Below the pieces are notes generated by a model that worked only from the letters and a program-made list of their open reading frames with translations, was not told the origin of the DNA and searched no databases. A DNA stretch of 64,000 nucleotides from sequence record NC_135731.1; one strand, 5' to 3'. Source of the stretch: a phage. The position numbers and the translations under genes are program-made. This document shows positions 4,572 through 46,725 of this stretch, in pieces; within the stretch, counting starts at the first letter, position 1; every line of letters starts with the position of its first letter.

Positions 4572-5484
4572 CAGGTAGTCTATCTGCTCCCATTCGAATT
4601 GTGTCGTTTATGTTCAGGCAAGGTCGCTAGTCTTGCCCCGCCATTTTCAGGCAGCTGCATGTCTCCATGCAGACCAGACTATATCTTATGAATGTGTAAA
4701 TACTCTGCCGCTCTAAGAATAGTTTCCTCATCTTCTTGGAAGAAACCTAAAGCTCTGTTGCATTTATCACAAAGCAACCCTCTTACAGCACCAGTTTTAT
4801 GGTCATGATCAACACAAAAGAAATCTCTGTACCCTTGCGTCCTATACTCATCGAGAGATATTCTACAAATGGCACACTTATGATCTTGATCTGAGAGTAG
4901 ACGATAGTATTCATCTTTTGTTATGTGAAATTTCTTCTCAATCTGATAAAACTTTTCACACATCTTACACCTGTTCGTAACCAGATATACTTTACCATAG
5001 TCACGTTTTGTGTAAAAACTATCAGCGAGCATACTTTCATGACAAGATTTGCATTCAAAAAGTTCACCTTTCTTCAGCAAGTCTTGAATAAATAATGCTG
5101 CGTCATCTCTCTTAACCATATTTTTGTTTTTACGAGATCCACCCTTCCTGTAGTACATATAGCATTCCTTGCATGTACCTGAGTATCCATCCTTGCTCTT
5201 AGATGATAAAAAGAAATCATCAATAGGTAGAACTCTTTGGCAATCCATACATTTTTTAGTATTACACATTCATCCTCCCGTTTCGAATCGCTTGATTCTA
5301 CGTCTTTCGACTAGTCGTTGAACGTTCATCCTCTCGGATGCTTCGCTGCGGATTATCTAAATTAACACACTGTTACCATACCTTCGATCTCTCTTCGAAG
5401 CCTCTATTATGTTACCATAGCAGGTTGGTGGTGTCAATAATAAAGATTTCCCCGCAATTAGGGAGGTTTTACGAGAGCTACAAA
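4572..5484 (-). mobile_element. putative group I intron 1 in terL, carrying EndoVII-like homing endonuclease
   Basis: Non-coding flanks around nuclease ORF; shared motifs gatatagtctgg and agactag (minus sense) just downstream of the ORF stop; boundaries approximate. Confidence 0.5.
4679..5269 (-). CDS. endonuclease VII-like (zinc-binding) homing endonuclease, intron-encoded
   Basis: Signature CVDHDHKTGAVRGLLCDKCNRALG matches the DHDH-TG-RG-LC-CN core of T4 endonuclease VII family; additional CxxC pairs. Confidence 0.75.
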   Translation of the reverse strand: MCNTKKCMDCQRVLPIDDFFLSSKSKDGYSGTCKECYMYYRKGGSRKNKNMVKRDDAALFIQDLLKKGELFECKSCHESMLADSFYTKRDYGKVYLVTNRCKMCEKFYQIEKKFHITKDEYYRLLSDQDHKCAICRISLDEYRTQGYRDFFCVDHDHKTGAVRGLLCDKCNRALGFFQEDEETILRAAEYLHIHKI

Positions 5485-7016: not shown

Positions 7017-7093
7017 TGGTCTCCACGGAGTGATTCGAACACTCGACCTCCTGATCCCAAATCAGGCGCTCTACCAAGCTGAGCTACGCGGAG
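7017..7093 (-). tRNA. tRNA-Pro (anticodon UGG)
   Basis: Minus sense CTCCGCGTAGCTCAGCTTGGTAGAGCGCCTGATTTGGGATCAGG...GTTCGAATCACTCCGTGGAGACCA; cloverleaf hand-folded, anticodon loop TTTGGGA, encoded CCA. Confidence 0.7.
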
Positions 7094-7104
7094 TATTTAT
7101 AATT

Positions 7105-7179
7105 TGGTGGCCCTGGGTGGAATTGAACCACCGTCTGGCGATTATGAGTCGCTTGCTTGAACCTTCCAGCTACAGGGCC
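7105..7179 (-). tRNA. tRNA with CAU anticodon (Met, fMet or Ile-lysidine)
   Basis: Minus sense GGCCCTG...anticodon loop CTCATAA...GGTTCAATTCCACCCAGGGCCACCA; acceptor and T-arm pair well, D-stem weak. Confidence 0.6.
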
Positions 7180-7180
7180 A

Positions 7181-7256
7181 TGGTGCTGATGGCAGGACTT
7201 GAACCTGCAACCTATTGATTACAAATCAATTGCACTACCAATTGTGCTACATCAGC
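7181..7256 (-). tRNA. tRNA-Thr (anticodon UGU)
   Basis: Minus sense GCTGATGTAGCACAATTGGTAGTGCAATTGATTTGTAATCAAT...GGTTCAAGTCCTGCCATCAGCACCA; all four arms fold. Confidence 0.75.
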
Positions 7257-7262
7257 AAAAAG

Positions 7263-7360
7263 GTGCTAGGTGATGGAATCGAACCATCTATGTATTCAAC
7301 GACTACCTCGTCTATTTTCAGGATTAAAAATCCTCGCCCTTGCCAAAGGGCTTACCTAGC
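7263..7360 (-). tRNA. atypical tRNA-like element (about 98 nt; anticodon unresolved, possibly UUU)
   Basis: Perfect acceptor stem GCTAGGT/ACCTAGC, D-arm GCCC..GGGC and T-arm GATGGTTCGATTCCATC, but about 31 nt lie between anticodon stem and T-stem and CCA is not encoded. Confidence 0.35.
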
Positions 7361-7458
7361 TCAGTATGTTGACCATGTTGCTAGTCGGCGATGACGACTG
7401 TAACATTTGATAATCCGGTTCTGCTTCCGGCTTTCGCTTAATTACAAGGCCAACAATG

Positions 7459-7549
7459 TGGCGGAGAGTAATGGAATCGAACCATCATCGAGTCATCCTC
7501 AATGGGACGGTTTTCAAGACCGCTTGAGCACCATTGCTCCCTACCCTCC
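7459..7549 (-). tRNA. tRNA-Ser (anticodon UGA), type II
   Basis: Minus sense GGAGGGT...anticodon arm GCGGTCTTGAAAACCGT...long variable arm...GGTTCGATTCCATTACTCTCCGCCA; 91 nt; anticodon arm matches E. coli tRNA-Ser(UGA). Confidence 0.65.
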
Positions 7550-7663
7550 TTTATAAATTATACTGATAATGACACTGATTTTCGAGCAGTTAGTGACTAG
7601 TATAAACGACGATAAATATCAATGCCATTATCTGTATTATTTATGCATCTAAAAATATAAATT

Positions 7664-7750
7664 TGGTGGGGAGTGGTGGAGTCGAACCACCCGAGTCGCA
7701 ATGACAATAGATTTACAGTCTACACCGCTACCTCTACGGGATAACTCCCC
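7664..7750 (-). tRNA. tRNA-Tyr (anticodon GUA), type II
   Basis: Minus sense GGGGAGT...TAGACTGTAAATCTA...GGTTCGACTCCACCACTCCCCACCA; 87 nt; anticodon loop CTGTAAA. Confidence 0.65.
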
Positions 7751-7754
7751 AATT

Positions 7755-7829
7755 TGGCACCCCGTACTGGACTCGAACCAGTGTCAACGGCTTAGAAGGC
7801 CGCTGCTTTATCCACTAAGCTAACAGGGT
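7755..7829 (-). tRNA. tRNA-Arg (anticodon UCU)
   Basis: Minus sense ACCCTGTTAGCTTAGTGGATAAAGCAGCGGCCTTCTAAGCCGT...CTGGTTCGAGTCCAGTACGGGGTGCCA; A1:U72 acceptor pair. Confidence 0.6.
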
Positions 7830-38987: not shown

Positions 38988-39268
38988 AAATGAGTGCTAA
39001 GGACAAATTACACCAGCTAGCGCTAAAACGCCCTGTAACGCTCCCTGACGAGCTTAACTCCATTTATGATGCGATTGTAGGGGAGATACAAAATAAAGCG
39101 TTAGCAGGCTTTCTGGGGTGCGGATTTTCGATAAATCTACCCTCGCATCTCTCAGATTACTTCCCGCACATTGTTGGAGATTTAAGGGCAGGAGGTCTGC
39201 AGGTAGATGTTGTTGGCATCTCCCCAGAGAAAAATAATACGGTTGCCTACTTGACAGTAACCTGGTAG
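38984..39268 (+). CDS. hypothetical protein
   Basis: Track ORF 38954..39268; start re-set to ATGA-overlap ATG (MKMSAKDK...). Confidence 0.35.
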   Translation: MKMSAKDKLHQLALKRPVTLPDELNSIYDAIVGEIQNKALAGFLGCGFSINLPSHLSDYFPHIVGDLRAGGLQVDVVGISPEKNNTVAYLTVTW

Positions 39269-39306
39269 TTGTGTATTGTTGTTTTCAACAAGAGGGGGGG
39301 TCATTT

Positions 39307-43358: not shown

Positions 43359-43642
43359 CAATGAAAAAGATTAACAGTGGTGAAGTTGAGTTTAAACTTG
43401 TCGGGAAAGGCACTTACTGGGAAGTTCGTCAAAAGGTATATTTGTTCGGTCTTATTCCCTATTGGTCTAAATTCTACTGGGGAGCTAACGAGTGGGGAAG
43501 ATACGCCACCAAATCAATGGCACTTATTGGTATAGCAGAGTACATTGCAGCCAGAGATAGGGTTGGAGACACTTATTACTATACTGCGGACGATATTCGT
43601 AACAGTGTTTACGTCCCACAACCACCTGATGGAGACCGTTGA
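43355..43642 (+). CDS. hypothetical protein
   Basis: 95 aa, overlapping stop/start. Confidence 0.35.
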   Translation: MTMKKINSGEVEFKLVGKGTYWEVRQKVYLFGLIPYWSKFYWGANEWGRYATKSMALIGIAEYIAARDRVGDTYYYTADDIRNSVYVPQPPDGDR

Positions 43643-43866
43643 TGAAAGTTAAAGTTTTAGATTCAAGCTTCTATATTGGTCAGGAGCCTTTAGTAGGAAA
43701 AGTGTTTACTGCTATCCCTAACGAAGATTACCCTGACCTTTTAAAAATAAAAGGAGCAGATCTTATTGCCGCTGGTGCATCTCAGGACTGCTTTGACAGT
43801 CAGTGGACCTACAACTTTGCCCTAGGCGAGGATGTAGAGGTAGTGGAGGACGATCATGAAGGTTAA
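43639..43866 (+). CDS. small acidic protein, paralog family member B
   Basis: MMKVKVLDS...LLKIKGADLIAAGASQD...VEVVEDD; first gene of cassette copy 1. Confidence 0.5.
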   Translation: MMKVKVLDSSFYIGQEPLVGKVFTAIPNEDYPDLLKIKGADLIAAGASQDCFDSQWTYNFALGEDVEVVEDDHEG

Positions 43867-44110
43867 AATTCTTGATTCTAACGTCTACTTGGGACAATCC
43901 TTCCTGAAGGGAAAGGTCGTTCCTGCGGTATACTTTGAAGGGTTGCCGTGGGATGATCCTGTGCGGCAACATCACAGTTATGTAGGCCACAACGTGGTGT
44001 TTATCTTGGGATCAGACCTGATCACCGTTGGTGCACCTGAATATTATTTCGGGGAAGAGTCCTATTATGCCTTTGGGGTAGGGTCAGATGCGGATATTGT
44101 AGAGCTGTGA
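43856..44110 (+). CDS. small acidic protein, paralog family member C
   Basis: MKVKILDSNVYLGQ...VVFILGSDLITVGAPEY...DIVEL; second gene of cassette copy 1. Confidence 0.5.
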   Translation: MKVKILDSNVYLGQSFLKGKVVPAVYFEGLPWDDPVRQHHSYVGHNVVFILGSDLITVGAPEYYFGEESYYAFGVGSDADIVEL

Positions 44111-44122
44111 TGGGTAACTGTT

Positions 44123-44521
44123 GTGAAAAATAAACTGTTTAAAGTTACAATGAAAATTCGCGGAGCTTGGAGCGTAAAGCAAGGGCGTATTCCGGAATTT
44201 GAGAAAGACTTCTACGTAGTCTCCACCTCGGAGGAGGCTGCATGCTGGCAGGCTGGCTATGCCTATGCAAGAACCTGGTACGAAGGATACCAGACTGGGG
44301 GCTATGACGGAGAAATTATCAGCAAGGGTGTAGAAGAAATTAATGTGTTGACAAGTGAAAAAGTTTTTGTTATAGTGCATCCAGATTCCAGAGTGAAGCA
44401 TTACTGGAATGCCAGAACAAAAACTTGGACACCGTTTGCAGATTCTGCTACACCACTTTTAAACCAAAAAGCTCTTGACTCTGCCCCAAGCTATGGGGTT
44501 GTTGAAGAAAAGCTAAACTGA
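44123..44521 (+). CDS. hypothetical protein, X-type (paralog of 46330..46725)
   Basis: Shares VxxHPxSxxxxYWxxxxxxWTP...AT.L block with 46330..46725; third gene of cassette copy 1. Confidence 0.45.
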   Translation: MKNKLFKVTMKIRGAWSVKQGRIPEFEKDFYVVSTSEEAACWQAGYAYARTWYEGYQTGGYDGEIISKGVEEINVLTSEKVFVIVHPDSRVKHYWNARTKTWTPFADSATPLLNQKALDSAPSYGVVEEKLN

Positions 44522-44834: not shown

Positions 44835-44863
44835 TTGACACAACGCTTCAGATTTAGTATCAT
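44835..44863 (+). promoter_or_regulatory. sigma70-like promoter upstream of HPF-like gene
   Basis: TTGACA - 17 nt - TATCAT. Confidence 0.5.
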
Positions 44864-44910
44864 TGTTTTCAAAGAGGGTTTGGTTCCCTCTTCTTTAAAA
44901 GGAACACGTT

Positions 44911-45228
44911 ATGCAAATTGAAATCACTGGCAACGTAGAAATCACTGAAGGTATGGTGTCTTTCATTTCCCACAAAATGTCTAAGCTGGAGCGTTTGCAC
45001 CCATCTGCCAACTATGCACGTGTGAGTGTAAAAGTTGAAAATGATCACCAGGAAGTTATGGCGTTCATTTTTGACAATTCTGGAAAAGAAGTTATTGCCA
45101 AGGCTAAAGGCAGTGATGCTTACGAGGCAACTGACCGTATGGTAGATGTTGCAGCACGTCAGCTGGCTAAATGCGGTGGAAAGAAAGGTAAGGGGAAAGG
45201 CAAAGTAAAGATTGACTTTGGAGAATGA
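44911..45228 (+). CDS. ribosome hibernation promoting factor / YfiA (RaiA) homolog
   Basis: N-terminus MQIEITGNVEITEGM...KLERL aligns with E. coli HPF MQLNITGNNVEITEAL...KLEQ; internal SVKVEN and C-terminal GSDAYEATDRMVDVAARQLAK versus GQDMYAAIDGLIDKLARQLTK; lysine/glycine-rich tail. Confidence 0.7.
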   Translation: MQIEITGNVEITEGMVSFISHKMSKLERLHPSANYARVSVKVENDHQEVMAFIFDNSGKEVIAKAKGSDAYEATDRMVDVAARQLAKCGGKKGKGKGKVKIDFGE

Positions 45229-45365: not shown

Positions 45366-45635
45366 ATGAAAATTAAATTATTCAAAACCGAGCTGGCAGA
45401 CAAAAACTGTGGACTGGTTGAAGGCATGATCGTTGAAGCACAACCAGTAGACTACATGAAGGTAGTTCGTGATGCCTTGGGTGAAGGTTTTGATCTGATG
45501 GAACCAGCTCTGCGAGAAGATGTTATCGAGATGGCTAAAAAGCACACACCTGAAGGCATGGTGGTGTTTGTTGCACCGGGTAACGGAGAAGAGTTGATTG
45601 TAACCCCTGATGTGTATAAGATTGTAGAAGAGTAA
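45366..45635 (+). CDS. small acidic protein, MKIK-start family
   Basis: MKIKLFKTE...ends YKIVEE; similar architecture to the paralog family. Confidence 0.4.
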   Translation: MKIKLFKTELADKNCGLVEGMIVEAQPVDYMKVVRDALGEGFDLMEPALREDVIEMAKKHTPEGMVVFVAPGNGEELIVTPDVYKIVEE

Positions 45636-46007: not shown

Positions 46008-46330
46008 GCTTTATTGGTGAAACAATTCCTGTGCATCTTCGGTCGCCTGAGGATTCTGCAGATCTTGCATCTCAAAAGGCCAGAGGGTATGATAAGAAAG
46101 TAACCTCAACCGATGTAGTGCTTGAGGCTACTAGTCTGCCCGACCCTGCTGCATTCTTTAATCATTATGGATACTATTTCAGCAATCTGATGAATATCGG
46201 TGAGCTTGTGTTTATTAGCGGTGGAGAAATTGTTAGCAAGCTTGGCGGCGATCCGGATGTCTTTCATGAAACCTGTCCTTTTGCATTTGTGGTTGGTTCA
46301 GATGTGGAAGTTATTGAGGAGGTGCGGTAA
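46008..46330 (+). CDS. small acidic protein, paralog family member E
   Basis: Track ORF 45971..46330; start re-set to ATG (MKVRFIGET...); LVFISGGEIVSKLGGDPD...VEVIEEVR; second gene of cassette copy 2. Confidence 0.45.
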
Positions 46331-46725
46331 TGGTAAGCCTATACCGTGTTGAGTATAGCTCAGATACTGTGTACAACGTAAGAAGCAAAGATCGCAGCGA
46401 CAGAGTGCAAGAAATGTATGTTCTTGCCGACAGTCCGTTATCTGCAGCGTTCAAGGCAGGGGCTCTTGCATCTCGTTGGAAATTTGAAGGCGGATCTTTC
46501 TATGAAGAAACCCTTGAAGATTCTGTTGTTATTTCTTCTGTAGAGGTTTCAGATGACTACGAAGGGAAAAAGTTCGTAATGCGGCACCCGCACAGCAACA
46601 TTGCGTACTACTGGGATGTTCTTAACAACGAGTGGACCCCAGATCTTCAGAAGGCTACTGTGCTAACACCGTTTTTGGCAGATAAGTTCCCACCAGAAGG
46701 TAATTTATCCGCACTGTTTCAGTAA
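46330..46725 (+). CDS. hypothetical protein, X-type (paralog of 44123..44521)
   Basis: FVMRHPHSNIAYYWDVLNNEWTPDLQKATVLTPFLADK; third gene of cassette copy 2. Confidence 0.45.
   Translation: MVSLYRVEYSSDTVYNVRSKDRSDRVQEMYVLADSPLSAAFKAGALASRWKFEGGSFYEETLEDSVVISSVEVSDDYEGKKFVMRHPHSNIAYYWDVLNNEWTPDLQKATVLTPFLADKFPPEGNLSALFQ

Follow-up and report, generated by a model that had tools for sequence, protein, structure and literature searches.

The 64,000-nucleotide stretch of phage DNA analyzed here (the window) encodes a short member of the HPF/YfiA family of ribosome hibernation factors that is host-derived and fixed in the coliphages of the genus Vequintavirus. As far as identity alone is concerned, it is practically certain that this 105-amino-acid (aa) protein is the known HPF-family protein of the rV5 type. 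We infer that the protein most likely acts early, by binding in a salt-labile manner to the decoding site of idle host ribosomes, and the explanation as a whole, in which a known rV5-type HPF would park or protect such ribosomes, is modestly favored by our analysis. No new kind of element is added, given that the existence and identity of the protein are established and widely annotated; what is new here is the selection on the core of the protein, the second, divergent phage lineage that carries it, and the pattern of lost and kept ribosome-contact residues.

The gene occupies positions 44911..45228 of the plus strand, from ATG to TGA, exactly where the initial annotation had placed its open reading frame (ORF), and the sequence quoted there was recovered without change. 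The window matches Escherichia phage phiWec196 (LC739542), an rV5-like member of Vequintavirus, with 100% identity, and in the annotation of that record the HPF gene appears as 'hypothetical protein'. An identical 105-aa protein, also catalogued as P0001, is the product of rV5 ORF144 (ABI79209), and the rV5 record (DQ832317) lists the gene as ORF 144 and its promoter as P144; with the same locus, the same promoter and the same genus, we find no difference between the two. About 118 phage records encode the 105-aa HPF at the same locus and at an identity of at least 94% (tblastn), under many GenBank and RefSeq names that include 'sigma 54 modulation factor', 'ribosome hibernation promoting factor', 'HPF' and 'RaiA'; the RefSeq label 'RaiA' is family-level and does not denote orthology. 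The phage HPF was already known, by annotation since the rV5 genome of 2006 and by publication and experiment since 2019, when Mizuno et al. (Nat Commun 10:752, PMC6375957) described the 105-aa protein ABI79209 of rV5 as a virus-encoded ribosomal protein and placed it among the gammaproteobacterial HPFs in their tree. The hpf gene was again noted in rV5-like phages in a virome paper of 2020, and our literature search found no functional study of the phage HPF after 2019/2020.

The true HPF gene is called 'ATP-dependent protease La type I' in records OR062525, OR062528, OR062530, MT884009 and MT884011, and the name 'sigma 54 modulation factor' is attached in APCEc02, nomo, nom and ECP32 to an 89-aa ORF two genes downstream (window 45366-45635, plus strand). 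Because Pfam returned no match for this ORF, we do not regard it as another HPF, and the label is an annotation slip. In the regions that were searched, eighteen records of 'Campylobacter phage' share 96-99% identity with rV5-like coliphages; one of them, MG065662, with C. jejuni as the host, is marked UNVERIFIED, and the host assignment of all 18 looks doubtful. The window spans the ends of record LC739542, at about 39150-39300, and coordinate arithmetic implies that ~148 bp are present at both ends of that record and once in the window; this duplication may represent either a terminal repeat or an overlap left by the assembly. Elsewhere in the window, the minus strand carries seven tRNA-like genes at 7017-7829, namely those for Pro, Met, Thr, Ser, Tyr and Arg together with a 99-nt element (7262-7360) to which ARAGORN assigns a four-base anticodon and which reaches an Rfam tRNA score of only 37.5 bits. 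This element may be a degenerate tRNA or one that carries an insertion.

The homology to HPF/YfiA that the initial annotation had proposed, together with the profile comparison to the S30AE family that it had called for, is borne out by curated profile models, by the closest solved structures and by the fold. The protein reaches 48.3 bits with Pfam PF02482 (Ribosomal_S30AE; gathering score 23.7; E 1.8e-12), with residues 3-88 on profile positions 1-83 of 88, and 45.9 bits with TIGR00741 (HPF/YfiA; cut-off 40.9), and thus exceeds the curated threshold in both cases. Among solved structures, its closest relatives are chains of E. coli HPF (2rql, 4v8h and 6h4n; E 5e-12 to 2.5e-11), with residues 1-89 of the phage protein aligned to residues 1-89 of E. 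coli HPF, and the block-for-block correspondence described earlier holds with respect to HPF, with MQIEITG.NVEITE/MQLNITGNNVEITE and DAYEATDRMVDVAARQLAK/DMYAAIDGLIDKLARQLTK lining up. The residues that are near-invariant in a 20-sequence alignment, T12, K22, E43, A63, D69, Y71, D75 and Q84, are all kept. The core domain (residues 1-88; 44911..45174, plus strand), delimited by Pfam and by the AF2 model, has the arrangement beta1-alpha1-beta2-beta3-beta4-alpha2. In the AF2 model, the mean pLDDT is 85 and exceeds 90 over most of the core, and the elements are E2-7, H13-29, E33-43, E46-55, E60-67 and H70-89. When the model was compared to the PDB by Foldseek, the top matches were V. cholerae HPF (4hei; TM 0.93, rmsd 1.0 A) and the 100S-bound HPF of E. 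coli (6h4n_x; TM 0.90, rmsd about 1 A), and each of the 36 matches with E <=0.001 is an HPF, RaiA or pY chain. The fold, as modeled, is that of the HPF family and, taking thresholds, fold and conserved residues together, we assign the phage protein to the HPF/YfiA family.

Within this family, sequence comparison identifies the phage protein as HPF-like rather than RaiA-like. Its identity is 41-43% to E. coli HPF (residues 1-87/89) vs 23% to YfiA/RaiA. The best-scoring NCBIfam model is still that of the enterobacterial short HPF (NF007780), at 55.8 bits vs an equivalog cut-off of 125, whereas the RaiA model (NF007654) yields 17.6 bits vs an equivalog cut-off of 158; by these scores, the protein is the equivalog of neither. 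It is not a long HPF either, given that alpha2 is followed only by a disordered tail of ~17 residues and not by the ~60-aa C-terminal dimerisation domain.

The short HPF of E. coli (YhbH, 95 aa; 2rql, 6h4n, 6y69) belongs to the same family, has the same fold and shares with the phage protein the contacts K23, K26, E60, D75, R83, K87 and K91. Compared to E. coli HPF, the phage protein is shorter by one residue in the beta1-alpha1 loop and longer by one in the beta3-beta4 loop, differs by replacement of Y30, D51, T53, H55, K80 and K89, and carries a tail that is ~10 residues longer and Lys/Gly-rich. The genes differ in context as well: that of the phage is under an early-type sigma-70 promoter, whereas that of E. 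coli HPF is in the rpoN operon. The E. coli protein RaiA (YfiA, protein Y; 113 aa) shares with the phage protein the fold, the binding-site family and a C-terminal extension past alpha2; however, the RaiA tail is longer, with an acidic end (net -3), whereas the phage tail is basic and unrelated in sequence. The phage tail, GGKKGKGKGKVKIDFGE (residues 89-105, with the stop codon at the end of 45175..45228, plus strand), is the added Lys/Gly-rich stretch that had been recognized at the outset. It has a net charge of +4, is predicted to be disordered (pLDDT <50 at residues 93-103 of the AF2 model) and makes the phage protein basic, with a pI of 8.7 vs 6.5 for E. coli HPF. Because nearly all of the ~118 records align across the full 105-aa query, tail included, the tail can be considered to be kept in nearly all of them.

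The gene is clearly maintained by selection, and its core is subject to strong purifying selection. Among 13 distinct rV5-like coding sequences, codons 1-88 show a mean dS of 0.33 (up to 0.8) and a mean dN of 0.017; the dN/dS of the core is about 0.05 vs 0.25 in the upstream neighbor, and that of the tail is about 0.23. Several natural variants depart from the common form. In phage YP-6 (L015, OQ376695; 401-412), a stop is found at HPF codon 4, and the CDS in the record starts at Met15; unless this is a sequencing error, the gene may be dispensable in culture. The Lys/Gly tails are frameshifted or shortened in Murica, APCEc02 and a few others, the start codon is GTG in JES2013, and some rV5-like sequences have the E. 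coli-like GNN in place of GN at residues 7-9. The variants in L015, L017, L018 and L014 may be real or may be errors in an A/G-rich low-complexity stretch.

We detected a second, divergent version of the gene in vequintavirus-like contigs (L004-L007; 124-137 kb) that stem from metagenome and run assemblies and are absent from the cultured-phage collection. In each of these, positions 5001-5312 encode a 103-aa HPF (P0004) that is 64% identical to the rV5-type protein and ends in a different, also basic tail with a similar K-W-D-Y terminus. This gene occupies the same position in a related small-gene array, in which the DNA is only partly alignable (65-85% identical there); since the divergent lineage has the gene at the same position, the capture of HPF predates the split of the two lineages. 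No P0004-like protein was found among 50,697 cultured-phage records in a tblastn search with the window protein, and P0004 was the sole representative with more than 50% identity among the 1.84 billion entries covered by an exhaustive HMMER search. The next matches in that search were HPFs of cellular origin (27-45% identity, E 2.5e-7 to 1e-3), with P0006 (1160 aa, 8 stretches) as the top cellular-looking match; a word-indexed protein search returned the phage clade only, and a scan of IMG/VR contributed just two further loci. HPF-family genes of large myoviruses are also represented by Cronobacter phage GAP32, Xanthomonas phage XaC1 and phrog_8990, and their S30AE proteins are separate from the rV5 type and much more distant. 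Because the rV5 type has its own PHROG, phrog_12469 (E 7.5e-71, the match to phrog_8990 being only 1.5e-6), the sequences are distant, and GAP32 groups elsewhere in the tree of Mizuno et al. 2019 (PMC6375957), these genes and those of the rV5 type probably were acquired independently.

The HPF gene is part of a long array of small genes, in which it is the first to follow a near-consensus sigma-70 promoter. The predicted promoter, TTGACA-17-TATCAT (44835..44863, plus strand; P144 of rV5), matches the consensus at 11 of 12 positions and is located in the 81-nt gap between the stop of the upstream gene (44829) and the HPF ATG. The claim that the gene has a promoter of its own is supported not only by the presence of this site and its annotation as P144 but also by its conservation: the site is kept in 14/14 rV5-like sequences examined, and a TTGACA element is present at the equivalent place in L004-L007. 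The window contains 8 sites with no more than one mismatch from TTGACA-N17-TATAAT vs 0.55 expected, whereas a general promoter scan of the region gives about the same result as shuffles (9 found vs 7.8 expected). The ribosome-binding site, read from the sequence as AAAAGGAA (44897..44904, plus strand), with AGGA ending 7 nt before the ATG, is conserved across the rV5-like upstream regions. Between the promoter and this site, at the predicted 5' end of the transcript, the sequence AAGAGGG-N7-CCCTCTT (44872..44892, plus strand) can form a stem-loop with a 7-bp stem and an energy of -9.9 kcal/mol. We rejected it as a regulatory element of the 5'-UTR, given that it is weak (z-score only -0.73 vs shuffles) and not conserved, being eroded in L008 and L011 and absent from the L004 lineage. 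A literature search found no published data on expression timing in vequintaviruses.

With respect to the surrounding array, the extended -35 context xxTGTTGACA is enriched in the window (19 vs 5.8), and one near-consensus promoter (44348-44376, plus strand) lies inside the coding sequence of a 132-aa ORF (44123-44521). This ORF forms a paralogous pair with 46330-46725 (plus strand; 28% identical, E 8e-10), and a second pair near the HPF gene consists of 43639-43866 and 43856-44110 (plus strand; 37% identical, E 3e-15). Pfam matches were found neither for the paralogs within 43639-44110 nor for 44123-44521 and 46330-46725.

The residues through which HPF and YfiA touch 16S rRNA, uS9 and uS7 were taken from a preprint on cryo-EM of the gammaproteobacterial proteins (bioRxiv 10.1101/2025.10.07.680626). 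In E. coli numbering, the phage protein keeps K23, K26, Q29 (present as R), E60, a hydrophobic residue at 62, D75, R83, K87 and K91; of these, K23, K26, D75, R83 and K87 are kept in both phage lineages. The replacements found in both lineages are L for Y30, M or S for E/D51, F or R for T53, V or T for K80 and G or S for K89. [quoted passage not shown] Given that the replaced contact positions are common to both lineages, the comparison suggests that ribosome binding by the phage HPF may be weakened or redirected; with two alpha2 lysines and the aromatic residue at position 30 gone, weaker, salt-labile binding is plausible.

The single published test of binding bears directly on this point and is a partial negative with respect to the 70S binding that the initial annotation, which suggested that host ribosomes could be silenced or protected, had named as a check. 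Mizuno et al. 2019 (PMC6375957) expressed the rV5 HPF in E. coli and detected it in the crude extract; however, after high-salt washing, the protein was missing from the 70S and 100S fractions, and the 100S fraction was unchanged. The authors call this result inconclusive and suggest that the growth phase may have been inadequate, that binding may truly be lost or that the protein may have been washed off under the stringent salt conditions (PMC6375957). Moreover, almost all ribosomes in their test were 70S, so that a decrease of 100S would be hardly visible. Weak, salt-labile binding would plausibly fit the negative result.

Under the mechanism that we favor, the gene would be transcribed early by the host RNA polymerase, to which the near-consensus, conserved promoter points, and the protein would dock on vacant ribosomes at the place used by cellular HPF and RaiA, namely the channel that separates the head of the 30S subunit from its body. 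Docking would involve the retained K22, K25, R28, E60, D75, R83, K87 and K91, and the Lys/Gly tail would run from the end of alpha2, where HPF contacts uS7, towards the region in which the RaiA tail comes close to the RMF site. As a result, idle ribosomes would be parked as 70S in a reversible and salt-labile manner, which resembles the effect of RaiA more than the formation of 100S by HPF together with RMF, and ribosomes would be preserved, or withheld from the hibernation pathway of the host, until they are needed for phage mRNA. A tblastn search of the 64-kb window (the phage genome is ~139 kb) with an approximate RMF query sequence revealed no RMF-like ORF (E >2). Several observations speak against the docking model, namely the negative result of Mizuno et al. 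2019, the replaced contacts, the NF007780 score of 55.8 vs 125, and the stop in YP-6.

The main rival to parking or protection of 70S ribosomes is an anti-hibernation role, an idea put forward by Mizuno et al. 2019 (PMC6375957). In this case, the phage protein would act as a competitor, either through weak occupancy of the HPF/RaiA site or through a tail that blocks the RMF site, and would keep the ribosomes of a slow-growing or stationary host available for phage mRNA. We consider such a role possible, though hardly probable. The extra ~10 residues of the phage tail relative to that of E. coli HPF are found where the YfiA tail heads to the RMF site, the contact remodeling common to both lineages is compatible with low-affinity, easily displaced binding, and the strong selection implies that the gene matters in nature. 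However, no visible change of the 100S fraction followed from expression in E. coli, albeit in a test with nearly all ribosomes in the 70S form.

A more doubtful alternative is that ribosome binding has truly been lost and that the HPF fold now serves to bind something else, for example a different RNA or a defense protein. The absence of the protein from washed ribosomes (PMC6375957) would be accounted for in this manner. The same holds for the loss of the Y30, E51, K80 and K89 contacts in both phage lineages, for the conserved phage-specific motifs DAYEATD, DHQEV and C-terminal K-[IW]-D-[FY], and for the shift of the pI from the 6.5 of E. coli HPF to 8.7-9.4. Nevertheless, most of the basic contacts of alpha1/alpha2 (K23, K26, R83, K87 and K91) as well as D75 are retained under very strong purifying selection, high salt is generally known to strip cellular HPF and RMF as well, and an alternative partner is indicated by none of the results.

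Less likely, and in our estimation improbable, is the classical function of HPF, that is, promotion of 100S dimers jointly with host RMF, which would shut down host translation at takeover. The phage protein is indeed closer to HPF than to RaiA (55.8 vs 17.6 bits, 41% vs 23% identity), and its best structural matches are HPFs. However, 100S levels did not respond to expression of the protein, and the 100S fraction did not contain it (PMC6375957). Furthermore, a global block of translation would also affect phage mRNAs, RMF is a stationary-phase protein with no homolog in the window, and the added tail resembles the arrangement of RaiA, which is tied to 70S rather than to 100S. Finally, the notion of a decaying, host-derived passenger gene without function, to which the premature stop in YP-6 and the frameshifted tails of Murica and APCEc02 might point, was rejected as effectively refuted by the dN/dS analysis, with a core value of about 0.05 despite dS up to 0.8, and is further contradicted by the single locus in ~118 genomes, by the lineage that is 36% diverged in protein sequence and by the conserved promoter and ribosome-binding site.

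Phage genes whose products touch the ribosome are rare and, across 50,697 phage records, HPF-like genes are almost confined to one coliphage genus. The very strong purifying selection on this gene contrasts with the finding that the protein was not on ribosomes in the only published assay. Along with the parking and protection of idle 70S ribosomes that we favor, we tentatively entertain the possibility that the protein is a remodeled, low-affinity HPF that serves as an anti-hibernation or ribosome-shielding device and not as a plain hibernation factor. The remodeling would consist of the shared loss of Y30, E51, K80 and K89 and the acquisition of a new basic tail ending in K-[IW]-D-[FY]; a protein so altered might displace host HPF, RaiA or RMF, or else might cover the decoding center against ribosome-targeting defense nucleases. 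If this is the case, the absence of the protein from salt-washed ribosomes would reflect weak, transient binding by design, and the remodeled HPF would enable rV5-like phages to make use of hosts that grow slowly or are under stress.
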